Part shown: one piece after another, positions 55,622 through 64,000 of the stretch
Position numbering within the stretch: position 1 is the stretch's first letter
Layout: each line of letters opens with the position of its first letter
From: Candidatus Latescibacterota bacterium
GTDB lineage: Bacteria; Latescibacterota; UBA2968; GCA-2709665
Reading direction: 5' to 3'
DNA: 64,000 nucleotides
Assembly (NCBI GenBank): GCA_965208835.1
Contig: OZ242358.1
Location: 2,304,001-2,368,000, forward strand
Made by a program: the position numbers and the translations under genes
Notes under the pieces: model-generated
The model's database searches: none
Told to the model about the DNA's origin: nothing
Seen by the model: the letters and a program-made list of their open reading frames with translations, nothing else

Positions 55622-57040
55622 CTACGCGTCGAAATACAGCGCGAATTCGTACGGATGCGGCCTGAGTCGCATCTCGTCGATTTCGTTCTTGCGCTTGTAG
55701 TCGATCCAGTGGTCAATCACGTCCAGGGTGAAAACGCTTCCCTTGAGGAGGAAATCGTGATCGGCTTCAAGGGCGTTGATGGCTTCTTCCAGCGATCCGG
55801 GCGTCTGGGGGACTCTGGCCAGTTCTTCCGGCTCCAGATCGTACAGGTCCTTGTCAAGGGGCTCGCCCGGGTCGATTTTGTTCTCGATGCCATCCAGGCC
55901 GGCCATGAGCATGGCTGCAAAGGCCAGGTAGGGGTTGCACGAGGGGTCCGGGCAGCGGAACTCGATCCGCTTTGCTTTGGGGCTGGGCGAATACATCGGG
56001 ATCCGGACGCAAGCACTGCGGTTGCGCTGGGAATAGGCCAGGTTGACCGGGGCTTCGTATCCTGGTACAAGGCGTTTGTAGGAGTTGGTGGTCGGCGCGG
56101 CAAATGCCAGCAACGCGTGTGCGTGTTTGAGGATGCCGCCGATGTAGTGGAGCGCCATCTCGCTGAGTCCGGCGTAGGCTGAACCGGCAAAGAGAGGTTC
56201 GCCGTTCTTCCACAGACTCTGGTGCACGTGCATCCCCGTGCCGTTGTCTTCAAAGAGCGGCTTGGCCATGAAGGTGGCAGTCTTGCCGTGTTTCCTTGCC
56301 GTATTCTTGACAATGTACTTGTAGAGAATCAGCTTGTCGGCGCATGACAGCAGCGGCGCGAACCGGAAGTCGATTTCACCCTGGCCGCCGGTCGCCACCT
56401 CATGATGGTGGGCTTCGACTTCGATTCCGCTGTTGAGCATATGCAGAACCATCTCGCTCCGGATATCCTGAAGGCTGTCGGTAGGCGGCACCGGGAAGTA
56501 CCCCTCTTTGTAACGCGGCTTATAGCCCAGGTTCGGCTGTTCGTCGCGGCCGGTATTCCAGCGGCCTTCGTTTGAATCGACGTAATAGTAACCCGAATTG
56601 TTCGTCTGGTCGAAGCGGATATCGTCGAAGACGAAGAATTCGGCCTCGGGTCCGAATGTGGCCGCGTCCGCGATGCCTGAAGATTTAAGGTAGTTCTCGG
56701 ACTTTTTCGCCACGGTTCTGGGGTCGCGGGTGTAGAGGTCTCTCGTGATCGGGTCTTCGATTTCACAGAATATAACGAGCGTGGGAATCTCAAGGAAGGG
56801 ATCGACAAAGGCCGTATCGGCATCCGGCATCACGAGCAGGTCGCTTTCGTCGATGGATTGCCAGCCGCGCATGCTGGAGCCGTCGAAGCCGAGGCCGTCT
56901 TCGAACGTGTCTTCTTCGACTTCCTCCGCCGGCACGGAAAAATGCTGCCAAAGCCCCGGATAGTCCGTAAAGCGGAAATCCACGATCTTCACGTTGTTAT
57001 CCTTGATCATTTCAAGGACGTCTTGAGGCGTCTTGCCCAT
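55622..57040 (-). CDS. glnA: Glutamine synthetase type I
   Basis: [41 protein letters not shown] adenylylation loop. Confidence 0.96.
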
Positions 57041-57127
57041 GCTGCCGCTCCTTTCGGGTGTGGGTCGTTGAATGGTCTCCACAAATGTCAAGACGAAATT
57101 GGAACGGCGCAAATATACGGGCAGTAT

Positions 57128-57165
57128 GTTTCGTATAGATTGCAAATATGTTAAATATATGTTAA
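57128..57165 (-). promoter_or_regulatory. 11-bp periodic direct repeats upstream of glnA
   Basis: TTAAC-n6-TTAAC-n6-GCAAT-n6-GAAAC on minus strand. Confidence 0.5.
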
Positions 57166-57275
57166 TAGCGGTACCGCTCAGCATGAGTGGGCGATGCCGG
57201 CGGCGCCAGCCGCCAGAGTCCGGAAACAGTCGCGGAGCGGGGAATTTGCGCCGTTCCGGATCAGCAGTAAAAGGC

Positions 57276-57304
57276 TTGACAAGAAACTTGCATTCCTTTA
57301 TCAT
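57276..57304 (+). promoter_or_regulatory. sigma70 promoter facing hrcA
   Basis: TTGACA-N17-TATCAT. Confidence 0.7.
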
Positions 57305-57322
57305 TTGAGGGAATACGGATTT

Positions 57323-57492
57323 AGAAGCTGTTTTAAAATTCCTGGCGAAAATGTGTCGGTCAAGGCGGGCAAATTCGGCTATGAGAGGCGAGCAAGCGCA
57401 GCCTCGATCTCGTAGAACGGGTGGATTTGACCAACGCAGACCGACACTTTTGCAGCCGCGCGAAGACCGCTGGGGGTTTTAAGACAGCTTCT
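57323..57492 (+). mobile_element. MITE-like element copy D
   Basis: TTA|GAAGCTGTTTTAAAA ... TTTTAAGACAGCTTC|TTA, apparent 3-bp target duplication. Confidence 0.82.
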
Positions 57493-57702
57493 TAGCTGGA
57501 TTCCGACAGTCTGAAGCTGCCCCTGCCATCCGGGTTGGCGTACGGGGGCATGCCGTCGGCATGCCAAAACGTCACCCTTCACGAAGTCCGCTCTCCCCCG
57601 TTAAAAACCGTCCACTGACTCAGATCGTCAATCTAAAGCTCAACGGGCATCTCCTCCGGCCCCCGCGGTCTTTCTCTGAGGCTATCGGAAGGGGTGGGAC
57701 GT

Positions 57703-58737
57703 ATGTTGCAGGTACAGCAGCGCGAAGCGGCAATTCTGAAAATTCTCATCAGCAAGCATGTCAATACCGGAGAGCCCGTCGGGTCACGCGCCATCGCCAG
57801 GTCCGGTCTGGGTCTCAGTTCCGCCACGGTGCGCAATTCCATGGCCGACCTGGAGGAGAAGGGCCTGCTCACCCATCCACACACCTCGGCCGGCCGCGTA
57901 CCCACGGACAAAGGCTACCGCTATTACGTCGACAAAGTGATGCCGCGGCAGACAATCGAGGAGGAGGAGCGGGAAGAGATCCGAGAGCGGGTAAGGGCAT
58001 ACGTTCGTGAGGGGGATATCGAGGCCTTGCTGGAGCAGATGTCCAGATTGATCGCCGATCTCTCAATGAACCTGGGCATGGTTCTCTCGCCGAGGTTCGA
58101 GCGGGGCGTATTCGACCGACTGGAAATGGTTCATCTGTCCGAAGGCAGGCTGCTGCTGGTGCTTGCGATCAAGTCGGGGCTGGTGAAGACGATGGTGATG
58201 GAGGTGGACTCGGCCATCACGCCGGGCGAGCTGGACGAGACCTCGCGGGCGGTAAACGAACGCCTGTCCGGTCTCAGCGTTGCGGAGATCAGGGATTCGG
58301 TCGCAGAGCGGCTCAGGGAGGTTTCGAGCGGGTCTCCCAGGCTGCTGCGGGTGCTGTGCGACAGCGCGTTGAATCTCTTCCGGTTTCAGAACGGCATGGA
58401 TCTGCATTTCGGCGGGGCCGGCAATTTCATTATGCAGCCGGAATTCAACCGCAAGAAAAACGACCTGGCCGCCCTCATGGAGCTGCTCGAGGCCCGGGAA
58501 CCGATGATTACGATTCTGGACGAACGGACCGAACACGAGGGGATTTCCGTGACGATCGGCGCCGAAAACGGGCCGCCGCAACTTCAGGGCTGCAGCGTGC
58601 TTACGTCGCGGTACCGCGTCGGCGCCATTTCCGGGGTCATCGGGTTGATAGGCCCTACCCGCATCCCGTATGCGAGGCTCATTCCCCTGACCCGGTATAT
58701 GGCCACGCTGGCCGAGGAAATGCTGGATCACCAGTGA
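57703..58737 (+). CDS. hrcA: Heat-inducible transcription repressor
   Basis: GEPVGSR, SSATVRN.MADLE, PHTSAGRVPTDKGYRYYVD, IGPTR. Confidence 0.95.
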   Translation: MLQVQQREAAILKILISKHVNTGEPVGSRAIARSGLGLSSATVRNSMADLEEKGLLTHPHTSAGRVPTDKGYRYYVDKVMPRQTIEEEEREEIRERVRAYVREGDIEALLEQMSRLIADLSMNLGMVLSPRFERGVFDRLEMVHLSEGRLLLVLAIKSGLVKTMVMEVDSAITPGELDETSRAVNERLSGLSVAEIRDSVAERLREVSSGSPRLLRVLCDSALNLFRFQNGMDLHFGGAGNFIMQPEFNRKKNDLAALMELLEAREPMITILDERTEHEGISVTIGAENGPPQLQGCSVLTSRYRVGAISGVIGLIGPTRIPYARLIPLTRYMATLAEEMLDHQ

Positions 58738-58755
58738 GAGGACACGCACAAGAAA

Positions 58756-59373
58756 ATGATAGACTCTGACGAAGTCAACGGCAAGGAAACAGAGGAGGAA
58801 GCCGCCGAACCGGAGGGTAGCGGGGAAGCGGAGGCTTCCGGGGAAGAAGACGCCCCGGACCCGCTTGAGGAAGCCCTCCGGGAGTCCGAAGCGTACAAGG
58901 ACCGGTGGATGCGTCTGGCGGCCGAGTTCGACAATTACAAGAAGCGGAGGACCAGGGAGTTCGATGCCCTGGTACAATCGGCCAGCGAGAACCTGATTCG
59001 GGATCTGCTGCCCGTTCTCGACTCGGTCGCGCGTGCGCAGGAACATCGCGCCGACGGCGAGGAAGATTCAGAGGGTTTCAAAGAGGGCGTCGCGATGATC
59101 ATGGAGGCGTTTCCCAAAGTCCTCCAGCGTCGCGGTCTTTCCGAGATCGAAGCCGCAGGGCAGCCGTTCGACCCCAACCATCACGAAGCGCTGATGCAGA
59201 TGACATCCGAAGATCACGAAGAAGGGCTCGTGATGGCGGTAGTGGAACGCGGCTACCGTCTCGGCGATAAAGTGATCCGGCCCGCAAAGGTCGTTGTGAG
59301 CGGCGGAAGCGCGGGGGAGGCGTCCGAAACCGATGAAGAGGGCGAGAAAGAAAGTGAAGCGAGGCAATCCTGA
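58756..59373 (+). CDS. grpE: Nucleotide exchange factor GrpE
   Basis: AEFDNYKKR, FDPNHHEA, GY.L..KVIRPAKV. Confidence 0.95.
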   Translation: MIDSDEVNGKETEEEAAEPEGSGEAEASGEEDAPDPLEEALRESEAYKDRWMRLAAEFDNYKKRRTREFDALVQSASENLIRDLLPVLDSVARAQEHRADGEEDSEGFKEGVAMIMEAFPKVLQRRGLSEIEAAGQPFDPNHHEALMQMTSEDHEEGLVMAVVERGYRLGDKVIRPAKVVVSGGSAGEASETDEEGEKESEARQS

Positions 59374-59441
59374 GCAGGGCCGGAATTCGGCTCTGCTGTC
59401 TGTTTTGTCGTACTGTTCTGTCCCGGAAATAAGTTGCCTGA

Positions 59442-59548
59442 ATTCGGCCGCTGAGTCGCCCGGCTCGCAAGGCGCTTGAGCGCAGGCGACCTGTGCAAGG
59501 TCAGCGAGCGAGGGGAACGCAGCGAGACGGGATGATTCGGCGGCCGAA
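59442..59548. repeat. Long imperfect inverted repeat element
   Basis: ATTCGGCCGCTGAGTCGCCCGGCTCGC ... GCGAGACGGGATGATTCGCGGCCGAAT with CAAGGCG/AACGCAG core. Confidence 0.65.
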
Positions 59549-59587
59549 TGGTGAGGTATTTTTGGGACAGGACAATAGGAACGGGTA

Positions 59588-60745
59588 ATGTCCAAACGCG
59601 ATTATTATGACGTACTGGGTCTGCAGCGTGGCGCGACCGATGGCGACATCAAGAAAGCCTATCGCAAGCAGGCGATGAAATATCACCCCGACCGGAACGC
59701 GGGGGATGAACAGGCCGCGGCCAGATTCAAGGAGGCTGCGGAAGCGTACGAGGTTCTGGGCGATGCGCAGAAGCGCCAGGTTTACGACCAGTACGGGCAC
59801 GCGGGCCTGGGCGGTCCGTTCCAGGGCGGTGGATTTCAATGGTCCGACTTCACCCATGCAACCGATTTTGAAGATATCTTTTCCAACCTCGACGACGTGT
59901 TCGGCGGCGGGATTCTGGGCGATCTGTTCGGCCGCCGCGGGGGTCGGCGCGGCCCACAGCGCGGTGAAGATCTCCGCATACCGCTGCGGTTGACGCTCGA
60001 GGAAATTGCGTCCGGCGTCCAGAAGCGGATCCGCTTCGCCCGCATGGACCGTTGCGACACCTGCGCCGGAAGCGGCGCCCGGTCCGGCGCGGCCGCCAGG
60101 ACCTGCAGCGTATGCAACGGAATGGGGCAGGTGCGCCAGGCCACGAGGTCTCTGTTCGGGCAGTTCGTGAACGTAACCGTGTGCCCGCAGTGCAACGGCG
60201 AAGGGAAGGTGATCGGCGACCGCTGTTTGGAATGCGGCGGCGACGGCAGGATGAAGAAGACCGTAAGTCTGTCCGTCAATATCCCGGCGGGCGTCACCGA
60301 CGGCAACTACATACCGTTACGGGGGCAGGGCAGCGTCGGGCCCAGGGACGGGGCCGCGGGTGACTGTATGGTGCTGATCGAAGAGGCGGAGCACGAGCAT
60401 TTCGAGCGGCACGGCAACGATATCCTCTATGAGTTGCCCATCAGTTTCAGCCAGGCGGCGCTCGGCGCGGAGGTCACCGTGCCCACACTGAGCAGCAGGG
60501 CCGAGATGAAGATCCCGGCGGGGACCCAGTCCGGGCAGGTCTTTCGCCTGAAGGGCAAGGGAATTCCGGAGCTGAACGGGTATGGCACAGGAGACCAGTT
60601 GGTCCGCGTGATGGTCTGGACGCCCGCTCGTCTCAACGAAGAGGAAAAAGCGCTCTTCCGACAGCTGGCCGATTTCGAAAACGTCCAGCCTCCCGAGGGT
60701 GGAAAGGGCTTGTTCGACCGCATGAAGGAAGCGTTTGGCGCGTAG
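59588..60745 (+). CDS. dnaJ: Chaperone DnaJ
   Basis: KRDYY, HPD, four CxxCxGxG zinc motifs. Confidence 0.96.
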   Translation: MSKRDYYDVLGLQRGATDGDIKKAYRKQAMKYHPDRNAGDEQAAARFKEAAEAYEVLGDAQKRQVYDQYGHAGLGGPFQGGGFQWSDFTHATDFEDIFSNLDDVFGGGILGDLFGRRGGRRGPQRGEDLRIPLRLTLEEIASGVQKRIRFARMDRCDTCAGSGARSGAAARTCSVCNGMGQVRQATRSLFGQFVNVTVCPQCNGEGKVIGDRCLECGGDGRMKKTVSLSVNIPAGVTDGNYIPLRGQGSVGPRDGAAGDCMVLIEEAEHEHFERHGNDILYELPISFSQAALGAEVTVPTLSSRAEMKIPAGTQSGQVFRLKGKGIPELNGYGTGDQLVRVMVWTPARLNEEEKALFRQLADFENVQPPEGGKGLFDRMKEAFGA

Positions 60746-60932: not shown

Positions 60933-62369
60933 TCATGTCAGCCTTGGAAAAAGGGGCTGGCTTTTTTTTATCTGCGATTTTGAGAAACTGGCCTCAATTC
61001 TGCGCGCAGTACCGGGAAGAAAGGGTCTCAGTACCCGCGAGACATCCAGAACCGCCCCGATCCAGGCCGAGAGGTGTTCCGACAGGCTCTCGGCCTTCTG
61101 ATCATTCAGAAGTTCCCATGGACGCGCCGCGTCGATATCACGGTTAATTTCGTCCACGCGCCGCCAGATGGCCCGGAGGGCGCCGGCGAAGTCGAACCTG
61201 TCCAGCGCGCCGCTCACGTCAGACGGGACATGGGTTTCACGCGTATCAGGGGGACCACAAACGGACCTCTCGCAGAGGGATTCCAGCCGGCGCACGAGGT
61301 TACCAAGCCCATTCGCCAGGTCCGAGTTGTAGAGTTCCCGCAACCGGGCTACCGATACGTCTCCGTCCTCTCCGGAGCGGACGGCGCGGAGCAGGTAGTA
61401 CCGGAGGGCGTCGGCGCCGAATCGGCGAATCAGAGGGAACGGATCGACGGCGTTGCCCTGCGATTTGCCGATCTTGCGCCCCTCCACGGTCAGGTGTCCG
61501 TGGACGTAGATGGTTCCGGGCAGCGGCAGGCCGGCCGAGAGCAGCATGGCCGGCCAGTAGATCGCGTGGAATTTGAGGATGTCTTTGCCGATGACATGGA
61601 CACAGTTGGCGCATTTCCGCCAGTAGCGTTCGAAATTGTCGACGTTTGAACCATAACCCGGCCCGGTGAGGTAATTTGTCAGGGCGTCGAACCACACGTA
61701 TATAACCTGCGATGCATCTCCCGGTACGGGTACGCCCCAGCCTCCCGATCGCTCCCGATTGCGGGAGATGCTGAAATCCTGCAGGCCCTGGCGGATGAAG
61801 CCAAGCGCCTCGTTTCGCCGGGTTTCCGGGAGAATGCGAAGCTTCCCGGATGCTATCAGGGTCTCCAGCGGCTTCTGATAGGCGGACAGGCGGAAGAAAT
61901 AGTTCGTTTCCGCGACGTTCTCGGGTACGACGCCATGTACAGGGCACCGTCCGTTTGCCAGATCCCTTTTCAAGTAGAAGTCTTCGCAGCCCACGCAATA
62001 CAGACCCCGGTATTTTCTGAGGACGATGTCCTCCTTCCGGCAGGCCAGCCAGAACCGGGAGGCGCCGCGGAAGTGGGCGTCGGACGAGGAGCGAATGAAA
62101 GCGTCATGAGAGATATCGAGGGCCCTGGCGAGGTCCCGGAAGACAGCGGCGTTCCGGTCGCAGAGCTGACCGGTGGACAACCCTTCGCTCACCGCGGCCT
62201 GCACGTTTTTGAACGCGTTCTCGTCGGTCCCCGTCAGAAAGAAGGTGTCGTTGTCCTGAAGACGGCGCCATCGGGCGATAACGTCGGCCTGCACCAGTTC
62301 CAGCGCGAAACCCACGTGTGGGCGGGCGTTGACGTAGGGAATCGAGGTCGATACGTATGAGGTTTTCAT
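60933..62369 (-). CDS. metG: Methionine-tRNA ligase, short form with variant signature motifs
   Basis: IPYVN..PHVGF, TGTDE, CVGC..CPVH, YVWFDAL.NY, GKDILKFH, KIGKSQGN. Confidence 0.9.
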   Translation of the reverse strand: MKTSYVSTSIPYVNARPHVGFALELVQADVIARWRRLQDNDTFFLTGTDENAFKNVQAAVSEGLSTGQLCDRNAAVFRDLARALDISHDAFIRSSSDAHFRGASRFWLACRKEDIVLRKYRGLYCVGCEDFYLKRDLANGRCPVHGVVPENVAETNYFFRLSAYQKPLETLIASGKLRILPETRRNEALGFIRQGLQDFSISRNRERSGGWGVPVPGDASQVIYVWFDALTNYLTGPGYGSNVDNFERYWRKCANCVHVIGKDILKFHAIYWPAMLLSAGLPLPGTIYVHGHLTVEGRKIGKSQGNAVDPFPLIRRFGADALRYYLLRAVRSGEDGDVSVARLRELYNSDLANGLGNLVRRLESLCERSVCGPPDTRETHVPSDVSGALDRFDFAGALRAIWRRVDEINRDIDAARPWELLNDQKAESLSEHLSAWIGAVLDVSRVLRPFLPGTARRIEASFSKSQIKKSQPLFPRLT

Positions 62370-62384
62370 GGCGTTTCCTTTCTG

Positions 62385-62423
62385 AAAAAAAAAACCCACC
62401 GCCGATCCGTCGGCGGTGGGTTT
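62385..62423 (-). terminator. Attenuator terminator in metG leader
   Basis: Perfect GC-rich stem CCCACCGCCGA-CGGA-TCGGCGGTGGG followed by 10 U, ending 15 nt before metG ATG. Confidence 0.85.
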
Positions 62424-62451
62424 GTCAAATACGGTAACCGTGTCGTTCAGT

Positions 62452-62610
62452 TCAAGTCAAGGGATGCTCCGCCGCAGGATTCTCGAAAGGGAAGGAGGAC
62501 ATCATGCACATCGGGATCGCGGCGACATGAGTCGACGCCGTGCTATGCCTTACGACTGAGGACCGCCCTGATACGCGCGACCTGAAAGCTGACAATTGAA
62601 CGGATTTCAT
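62452..62610 (-). CDS. Putative metG leader peptide (52 aa) with Met-Cys-Met-Met control codons
   Basis: AAGGGG RBS; MKSVQLSAFRSRVSGRSSVVRHSTASTHVAAIPMCMMSSFPFENPAAEHPLT*. Confidence 0.7.
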   Translation of the reverse strand: MKSVQLSAFRSRVSGRSSVVRHSTASTHVAAIPMCMMSSFPFENPAAEHPLT

Positions 62611-62638
62611 TTACAGCACCCCTTATTGTGTGGGCTTA

Positions 62639-62667
62639 AAGATAGATGGTCGGCCATGAATTGTCAA
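62639..62667 (-). promoter_or_regulatory. sigma70 promoter of leader-metG transcript
   Basis: TTGACA-N17-TATCTT. Confidence 0.75.
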
Positions 62668-62818
62668 GCGCGGAATTCTTAACTTGCCCTTGTCCTTTTC
62701 GCGTGATGGGCTTACATTGTCGAAGACGGGAGAACCGGCGACCGGCCCGGCGGTCGCCAGGGTACAAGCCTTACCGGGCGCAGTCTTATTTTGGCGAACT
62801 ATCGATAGGGATTCGGCT

Positions 62819-63868
62819 TTGCTTTTCTGGCTGGGAGAACGCTTCGCGGACGTTTACGGTCCCCTTCGGTTGTTGACGTCCTATCTGTTTCTGGCAGTCC
62901 TCGGCACGGCGATGGCAGGGTTCTTCACCTGGCGTCTGCTTCCCCGGTTGTGGAAGCGCCTGCCCAGAGACCGGGGCCGGGCGTATGCCGTGGAGAACGA
63001 ACAGAGCCACGGTAAACCGGTCGGTGCGGGCATTATCTTCATACCGATCTACGTCGCCGTGTGCATCCTGGTCCTACCGCCGGGCTCCCGGTACTGGCAG
63101 ATCCTCGGGTGCATACTGCTTGCGATGGTGGCCGGTTTTCTGGACGATCGAAGTCCCGGAGGATGGGGCGAATATCGCGTGGGCGGCATCGACCTGGGCA
63201 TCTCGTTACTGGGTGCGATGGTCATCTGCCAGTTGGAACCGGTCCAACTCTGGCTGCCGCTGATGAAGACGCCGGTATCGGTTCCGCCGTGGATTTTCGT
63301 GCCCGGCGCCGCGCTGTTGATCTGGGTCTCGATCAACGCCACCAACTGTACCGACGGCGTGGACGGGCTGTCGGGAAGCCTGAGCGTGATGGCGTTCGTC
63401 TACCTGGCCACAATTCTGTACGGGATTGTGGGACACCGGGATATCGCCAGGTACCTGCTCGTGCCGCATTACCCGGATGGCGCGGTCTGGGCGCTGTTCG
63501 CGTTCATTATGGCCGGGTGTCTGGCCGGTTACCTCTGGTATAATGCGTATCCCAGCTCCGTTCTCATGGGAGACGCGGGCTCCCGCCCGATGGGCTTCCT
63601 GCTCGGGATATTGGTTCTGGCGTGCGGCAATCCGTTTCTGATCGTCGTCGTCGCCGGCGTGGTTCTGGTGAACGGCGCCACCGGGCTCCTGAAAGTCGCG
63701 TTTCTGCGGTTTTTGAAAATCGGGATATTCAGGACGGTCCGTTATCCGCTGCACGATCACTTCCGGCACAAGAACGGCTGGTCGAATACCCACGTGCTCG
63801 TGCGGTTCATCCTGCTTCAGGCGTTCGTAACGCCAATCCTGCTGGTGCTGCTGGTCAAGATCCGATGA
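62819..63868 (+). CDS. mraY: MraY-like phospho-MurNAc-pentapeptide transferase (divergent type)
   Basis: GFLDD, NATNCTDGVDGL, YLWYN..P..VLMGDAGS, PLHDH; TTG start inferred. Confidence 0.8.
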   Translation: MLFWLGERFADVYGPLRLLTSYLFLAVLGTAMAGFFTWRLLPRLWKRLPRDRGRAYAVENEQSHGKPVGAGIIFIPIYVAVCILVLPPGSRYWQILGCILLAMVAGFLDDRSPGGWGEYRVGGIDLGISLLGAMVICQLEPVQLWLPLMKTPVSVPPWIFVPGAALLIWVSINATNCTDGVDGLSGSLSVMAFVYLATILYGIVGHRDIARYLLVPHYPDGAVWALFAFIMAGCLAGYLWYNAYPSSVLMGDAGSRPMGFLLGILVLACGNPFLIVVVAGVVLVNGATGLLKVAFLRFLKIGIFRTVRYPLHDHFRHKNGWSNTHVLVRFILLQAFVTPILLVLLVKIR

Positions 63869-63888
63869 ATGGCACGTGAGAGGAGCGC

Positions 63889-64000
63889 ATGGACGAAAAA
63901 GAGACATTGAAGCGAGAGATCTGCGAGGCCATCGACCGCCGCAGGGGGCAGATCGAGCGGATCGGGGACCACATCATGGCCCATCCCGAGACCGGTTTCA
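63889..64000 (+). CDS. 5' end of M20 amidohydrolase (partial)
   Basis: GAGGAG RBS; MDEKETLKREICEAIDRRRGQIERIGDHIMAHPETGF. Confidence 0.65.
   Translation, partial: MDEKETLKREICEAIDRRRGQIERIGDHIMAHPETGF

Follow-up and report, generated by a model that had tools for sequence, protein, structure and literature searches.

The window, the whole 64,000-nt stretch of DNA that was analysed, comes from a genome whose closest relatives are mostly labelled Candidatus Latescibacterota. Its minus strand carries a gene for an accessory methionyl-tRNA synthetase (MetRS), here named metG2, which is preceded by a promoter, a short open reading frame (ORF) with a cluster of methionine codons and an intrinsic terminator. 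The features are listed here in the order in which they are read on the minus strand.

62639..62667, minus: sigma-70-type promoter, -35 box TTGACA (62667-62662), 17 nt, -10 box TATCTT (62644-62639)
near 62632: predicted transcription start, from the position of the promoter
62619..62624, minus: Shine-Dalgarno (SD)-like sequence of the leader ORF
62452..62610, minus: leader ORF of 52 codons (52 aa); peptide poorly conserved
62518..62525, minus: candidate segment 1 upstream of the Met codons, able to pair with segment 2
62500..62511, minus: control codons Met-Cys-Met-Met, with the sole internal Met codons at 62511, 62505 and 62502
62494..62503, minus: candidate segment 1 of the preliminary description, GATGTCCTCC, overlapping the Met codons
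62469..62480, minus: segment 2, the antiterminator arm; core CGGCGG (62474-62469), extension 62480-62477
62473-62463, minus: GGCGGAGCATC, pairing partner of the segment 1 proposed in the preliminary description
62385..62423, minus: intrinsic terminator (segments 3:4), 14 bp (62423-62392), U10 tract (62394-62385)
62416-62411, minus: CCGCCG in the terminator 5' arm, complement of CGGCGG
62376..62381, minus: ribosome-binding site of metG2
60933..62369, minus: metG2, accessory methionyl-tRNA synthetase, 478 aa, ATG at 62369

A preliminary description of this DNA had placed the promoter, ribosome-binding site, 52-aa ORF, Met cluster, terminator and U10 tract on the minus strand, and all of them were found where it had put them, as were GATGTCCTCC, GGCGGAGCATC, CGGCGG and CCGCCG. 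CGGCGG begins 25 nt past the last Met codon, and the leader stop is at 62454. The promoter was the single promoter-like site in 61500-64000; since the mean of shuffled sequences was 0.8, the match is weak evidence alone. The terminator has a folding energy of -26.7 kcal/mol (z -6.7), reached in 0 of 200 shuffles, and at least three ATG within four codons occurred in 159 of 200,000 random 51-codon stretches of the genome. The folding energy of the whole leader is unexceptional (z -0.97; z -0.64 for the 2:3 stretch), and the evidence for an RNA switch in this leader is comparative, not based on folding energy. The leader peptide matched no Pfam family.

The genome holds two metG genes. The housekeeping copy (647 aa, C1:2197708) lies directly behind another gene and has no Met-cluster leader there; metG2 is about 170 aa shorter and 38% identical to it. 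The preliminary description had named metG as the target; the gene is the second, 478-aa back-up copy and not the main metG. The protein passes TIGR00398 (397.7 bits against a cut-off of 336), its closest solved relatives are the Aquifex-type 2csx and other type-1 enzymes, and by family score it is a predicted methionyl-tRNA synthetase, type 1-like, with variant forms of the catalytic motifs. Proteins of the metG2 type have HVGF, DE-N[AS]-x-KN and KI[GS]KS where the housekeeping form has HLGH, DEHG-x-KV and KMSKS, a motif count that is biased, one search seed having been derived from the second motif. According to the part of PMC9071491 consulted, a DEHG-x-KI stretch lines the auxiliary inhibitor pocket of type-1 MetRS; this pocket-lining motif differs between metG2 and the housekeeping copy.

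Transcription of metG2 is apparently monocistronic, because the convergent dnaJ comes next. The region 55622-60745, its genes identified by reading their sequences, holds glnA on the minus strand and hrcA-grpE-dnaJ on the plus strand; dnaK is missing from the place between grpE and dnaJ, and the last of these converges on metG2. On the other side, a divergent MraY-like gene (62684-63868, plus strand; 117.7 bits against the mraY cut-off of 192) stands apart from any division-cell-wall cluster in that part of the window.

Among 60 relatives, the carriers of the short metG comprise 13 of the 14 other genus members, 3 of 7 further family members and a few others. The long metG is also present in all 20 Latescibacterota carriers of the short gene, this genome included, and 10 of 12 distant genomes checked have another metG. 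A search of 251 genomes around Neorhizobium returned only three close matches, Neorhizobium itself included, so the gene is patchy. No recurrent biosynthetic-cluster neighbour appeared among 35 of the 90 listed flanking ORFs of distant loci (scan at E 1e-25), and the four annotated plasmid regions carrying an accessory metG showed no biosynthetic-cluster context. As to the role of the spare enzyme, we lean towards a back-up for starvation or capacity; bypass of an inhibitor would be a rather unlikely role, and something else is unlikelier still.

Conservation of the leader and of its RNA pairing

Of the 20 short-metG loci (L001-L020), 17 share the arrangement of promoter, leader ORF, Met cluster and terminator: all 14 loci of the genus and L016, L017 and L018. 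In L014, L015 and L020, metG2 lies directly behind other genes and has no such leader. One genus supplies 14 of the 17 leaders, and kin are not independent in these counts. The promoter pattern TTGAC[ATG]-17 nt-TAnnnT is present in 17/17 homologous leaders, while the spacer varies, and a purine-rich SD-like stretch precedes the leader start. The ORF is open with an in-frame Met cluster in every one of the 17 leaders, its length ranging from 46 to 57 codons, and the first Met stands 91 nt before the terminator in 14 of them.

Within the genus, Met codons 1 and 2 are invariant (14/14 loci) and the third is kept in 13 of 14, while each of the 12 codons before the first Met is represented by 3-7 different codons. 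The distant leaders read MGMSM, MGMPMSM and MGM. The codon between the leader Met codons can be Cys, Arg or Tyr, and co-sensing of Cys was rejected because this middle codon varies. The preliminary description had read the locus as a Met-codon attenuator, and the Met-rich upstream ORF that it sought in orthologous leaders is conserved; a Met cluster kept while the peptide drifts, together with the Met-pair leaders of other phyla described below, supports its reading.

Two internal promoter candidates, TTGACA at 62428 and TTGACT near the leader stop, were rejected, neither being conserved in the alignment. With the TTGACA inside the leader unconserved and about 15 nt left between the end of the terminator and the start codon, a promoter bypassing the terminator is unlikely. 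A de novo scan of the genome returned 19 leader-terminator candidates; among them, a Met cluster occurs only in the metG2 leader, and the scan missed the His leader described below. At C1:3674460-3674740 of the same genome, a Val/Leu/Ile/Pro-rich leader ORF is followed by a terminator with a U tract and a 591-aa gene, which from its N-terminus is probably acetolactate synthase, its leader probably being a classical ilv attenuator. A weak match at C1:4645200-4645290 sits in unrelated coding DNA and was discarded.

The terminator carries the helix covariation that the preliminary description had proposed to look for: 98.3% of cells are paired, 6 pairs show two-sided changes, and the covariation score was reached by none of 500 shuffles. 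Segment 2 can pair with the terminator 5' arm in 82 of 84 cells for the core and in 49 of 56 for the extension (14 genus loci), and in L016-L018 segments 2, 3 and 4 differ jointly from the genus form with the pairing kept. Most two-sided changes come from three distant sequences and so represent few events; for the 2:3 helix, the automatic alignment holds only 2 two-sided pairs, a number matched by 41 of 500 shuffles. The 1:2/2:3/3:4 scheme of the preliminary description stands for 2:3 and 3:4, whose pairing is conserved, but its 1:2 helix, with 116 of 126 cells paired across the 14 loci of the genus, is one of two candidates. The alternative, upstream of the Met codons, is paired in 99 of 112 cells in the same 14 loci, with coordinated changes in L016 and L018, and both are unpopulated at equilibrium in the shortened fold of the window leader.

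Folding with a ribosome constraint, also suggested in the preliminary description, agreed with the scheme in one of two models and only in part in the other. In model A all RNA behind the leading edge of the ribosome was excluded from pairing; the probability of 2:3 was then at least 0.5 in 17 of 17 leaders with the A-site anywhere between two codons ahead of the first Met and six codons past it. At +10, a single leader of the 17 still reached this level, and from +14 onwards no leader did; all Met control codons lie within the range of A-sites that favours 2:3. In model B the footprint alone was blocked and upstream RNA could pair across the ribosome; with the ribosome at the first Met, 9 of the 17 leaders reached the same level, and at the last Met 5 did, the window leader giving 0.84 and 0.01, respectively. 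Naked RNA already favours 2:3 in 6 of the 17 leaders. The predicted preference for the antiterminator with a ribosome over the Met codons is model-dependent. Because the terminator (-26 kcal/mol) is more stable than the 2:3 helix (-14 to -18 kcal/mol), the switch must be kinetic.

Control codons, downstream genes and Met leaders of other phyla

The same genome (G000) holds a His leader at C1:453741-453980, composed of TTGACT-17-TATCTT, a long ORF, a segment 2, a terminator and a U tract; its HRHTHH cluster is located 90 nt before the terminator, ahead of methyltransferase-hisI-hisG. The locus (L232, C1:453741-456101) gives the genome a second set of his genes. A His leader precedes methyltransferase-hisI-hisG in 13 of 16 such loci. 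Mixed forms were found as well. The HMHHHM leader of G017 is followed by an operon that includes hisG, metG2 and a prs-like gene; that of G054 has MGMHTHT, with a remnant of prs ahead of metG2; in G037, a Met/His/Thr-rich leader precedes a broken thrS-metG-hisI-prs operon. G110 and G126 have two His-rich leader and terminator units in tandem before metG2 (L208:820-1245 and L205, respectively), hisI and prs follow metG2 in G110, and some metG2 leaders of these two genomes are richer in His than in Met. An archaeal-type thrS (PRK03991) lies beside metG2 in L207 (G037:C132) and L200 (G015), broken or interrupted in both.

This link between control codons and cargo is the strongest argument for amino-acid sensing, and the His and Met versions in one genome amount to a natural codon-swap experiment. 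When the genome was searched with a Met-leader profile that left out the terminator, the His leader was not recovered; a His-leader profile matched only L017 (E 1.5e-4) and L199 (E 8e-4) in a small set, leaving the Met leaders of the genus unmatched. A covariance model did match the His leader (E 2e-5), with a score no better than that of an unrelated terminator, and common descent of the two leaders is therefore unproven; the intermediates in G017 and G054 point to it and make it plausible.

We placed 181 metG proteins from L001-L198 on a FastTree tree, after removing 8 duplicate entries and 9 loci whose genes are broken or truncated. A Met-pair leader was scored when a closed ORF of 8-75 codons with an internal MM or MxM lay no more than 330 nt upstream (in four loci, 650 nt), and loci with less than 150 nt upstream were left unscored. 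In clades picked on the tree while it already displayed the leader labels, and in which kin are not independent, a Met-pair leader was present in 16 of 18 loci of the Latescibacterota clade, 4 of 11 of its sister group, 65 of 72 of a large clade of Alphaproteobacteria, Actinomycetota, Myxococcota, Chloroflexota and Rokubacteria, 5 of 6 of a Ktedonobacteria clade and 3 of 70 of all other metG. By the same rule, none of 11 other amino acids exceeded 17 of 72 in the large clade. A -10 box stands 4-8 nt before a start codon in 45 of the 65 large-clade leaders (shuffled mean 3.6, maximum 9).

Met-pair leaders precede accessory metG genes on plasmids of Rhizobium, Sinorhizobium, Streptomyces and Embleya; examples are MNRSLANATMMMPRS (Rhizobium, L111, a compact leader of 15 codons), MHTNPINVTMMMLRS (Sinorhizobium, L114) and MITPSRQHRMMPRTRGC (Streptomyces, L112). 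When distant loci were folded, blocking the Met codons opened the terminator in L040, L042 and L114, and not clearly in the other five. Some family members occur in named, cultured hosts, such as Neorhizobium petrolearium DSM 26482. In an actinomycete locus (L048:3001-6254), a second full metG follows directly after the accessory one, and the leader has one internal Met only.

Some relatives carry a second element, absent from the window. Within 130 nt before metG2 in L009, L011, L014-L017 and L019, a second ORF with GG-x-x-x-M-x-x-S runs out of frame across the metG2 start codon; its Met codon lies 73 nt upstream in 6 of the 7, inside a helix that pairs with the metG2 SD. Blocking the Met region lowered the paired probability of this SD from 0.88-0.99 to 0.43-0.76, with L016 showing the opposite, and the element looks like a candidate translational Met switch. 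It stands behind the transcriptional leader in 5 of the 7. In L019 (G012), metG2 is frameshifted near codon 137 and both leader elements are intact.

Proposed mechanism, alternatives and known systems

We propose, with a probability of roughly 85%, that the leader is a ribosome-mediated attenuator that senses charged elongator Met-tRNA and controls a back-up MetRS. Its parts, their conservation and spacing, the complementarity of the segments and the match of control codons with the gene were observed directly. From these we infer that the leader is translated, that the ribosome stalls, that the switch operates in vivo and what its physiological trigger may be. RNA polymerase would start near 62632 and a ribosome would translate the leader. 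With ample Met-tRNA, it would pass the Met codons, cover segment 2 and reach the stop at 62454; the 3:4 hairpin would then form and transcription would stop at the U tract. When Met-tRNA is scarce, because methionine runs short or the main MetRS fails or is inhibited, the ribosome would wait on the Met codons, the free segment 2 would pair with the terminator 5' arm and loop, and, with 2:3 formed, polymerase would continue into metG2. Sensing Met poses a difficulty for a leader peptide, since initiation of the leader itself requires Met-tRNA.

The same RNA could instead respond to general slowing of ribosomes or to nascent-peptide arrest of the TnaC or erm type, triggered by an antibiotic, SAM or a metabolite, with the ATGs incidental or kept for pairing. 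In favour of this improbable reading, the leader is long for a classical attenuator, the stall positions favouring 2:3 span about 9 codons, and a conserved pairing segment extends into the last Met codons; yet most positions of the peptide ahead of these codons are variable, unlike in arrest peptides, whose hallmark, a conserved peptide upstream of the stall site, was absent from the 14 genus loci, and Met pairs are kept in unrelated sequence contexts across several phyla, with His codons at the same place before his genes. Control independent of translation, by a protein (e.g., MetRS), an RNA binding uncharged tRNA or a new riboswitch, would make the ORF a by-product. It would fit naked RNA that takes either fold, depending on the species, and has a parallel in E. 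coli metG, with its terminator-containing leader without a peptide; we consider it still less probable, given that no Rfam family was matched at gathering score in the window or 12 related loci and that the frame and its Met cluster are preserved throughout the 17 leaders.

If the clustered ATGs were alternative starts of a shorter leader, initiator tRNA or the rate of initiation would be sensed. A start at 62511 would indeed give a 19-codon ORF, an ordinary leader length, and Met shortage also hits fMet-tRNA; however, an SD-like sequence precedes the leader start at 62610 and none precedes 62511, and the -10 box of 45 of the 65 large-clade leaders indicates that the ORF starts several codons before the Met pair, which places this idea lower again on our scale. 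The least credible account is that the terminator is constitutive and leaky and does no more than hold down the expression of a horizontally acquired gene, with everything else due to shared ancestry. The strength of the terminator and the predominance of one genus among the leaders suit it; against it, 65 of 72 distant homologues have a Met-pair leader and 3 of 70 controls do, the spacing is fixed, and segment 2 still complements the terminator arm where that arm has changed.

Building on the Met attenuator, a broader scenario may be sketched, which we hold as tentative and, taken as a whole, rather doubtful. The leader and gene would form a mobile module of several phyla, in which a variant MetRS, its pocket remodelled near the methionine site, stays silent until Met-tRNA falls and protects against a postulated natural MetRS inhibitor, comparable to the protection from indolmycin by an auxiliary TrpRS. 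The Latescibacterota leader would go back to an attenuator that responded to His, Met and Thr alike and stood before a thrS-metG-hisI-hisG-prs operon; when this operon broke up, each half would have retained only its own control codons, and some relatives would have added a tandem translational Met switch.

Methionine genes are usually described as being under MetJ, SAM riboswitches or T-boxes. No T-box, and no SAM or other Rfam riboswitch or leader, matched the window or the 12 related loci at gathering score; the 15 weak hits fell on the terminator only, the best by E-value scoring at most 21 bits, and included no T-box. An auxiliary, indolmycin-resistant TrpRS of Streptomyces coelicolor is reportedly under ribosome-mediated attenuation. 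Both systems have a spare synthetase turned on by a leader that senses (in the case of metG2, putatively) a shortage of its own charged tRNA; the differences are that the former concerns Trp and has its resistance shown, and that metG2 concerns Met. The tandem arrangement in five relatives with a second Met-codon ORF recalls B. subtilis rtpLP, where transcriptional and translational sensing of uncharged tRNA-Trp follow each other; the first sensor of rtpLP is a T-box, whereas both elements appear to be read by ribosomes in the metG2 relatives.

The preliminary description was not aware of a characterised Met-sensing attenuator, and our literature search, with subscription papers outside its scope, likewise found no tested example and no account of this accessory-metG family, but putative Met leaders have been proposed in print. 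In the supplement of PMC4007540, a table entry proposes Deide_09379 of Deinococcus deserti, before metG, as a Met leader/attenuator. As in the window, a short Met-containing ORF (15 aa, internal M-x-M) precedes metG, there with a mapped transcription start; it differs in being leaderless, and another start site, nearer to its 668-aa metG, gathers more reads. The parts consulted of PMC4007540 give no structure for it. In Streptomyces lividans, metL, before metNIQ, was proposed as a Met-dependent leader peptide (PMC8079986, consulted in part); it precedes a Met importer, its authors found no typical intrinsic terminator, and the part consulted contains no analysis of conservation. As far as found in the sources consulted, Met specificity is thus suggested in print twice, each time for a single leader without a functional test.

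The consulted part of PMC2965389 describes His leader peptides before hisS paralogues in bacilli, which are alike in that a duplicated synthetase gene acquired a leader-peptide attenuator and differ in concerning His and Firmicutes. Its table S8 lists 11 metG-family terminators (3 T-box, 8 unannotated), none as a leader peptide. For Streptomyces, trpS and leuS attenuators were predicted in PMC1262725; according to the part consulted, the methionine operons of the actinobacteria surveyed have no RNA structure conserved ahead of them. The parts consulted of PMC1183508, PMC5314783, PMC8165550 and PMC7916415 contain nothing on Met leaders. The conserved family makes Met testable as a leader-peptide signal and also flags a widespread spare MetRS, which may be a starvation back-up or an inhibitor bypass.

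By every testable feature except the ambiguous 1:2 helix, the leader belongs to the classical leader-peptide attenuators, with a short promoter-proximal ORF and its ribosome-binding site, conserved cognate control codons, an intrinsic terminator and an exclusive 2:3 antiterminator, the last with weaker support under the footprint-only model. It resembles the pheM-pheST type of E. coli in its leader ORF, cognate codons, alternative antiterminator and terminator, U tract and downstream synthetase gene, and differs from it in that the control codon is Met and the leader is about 52 codons long.
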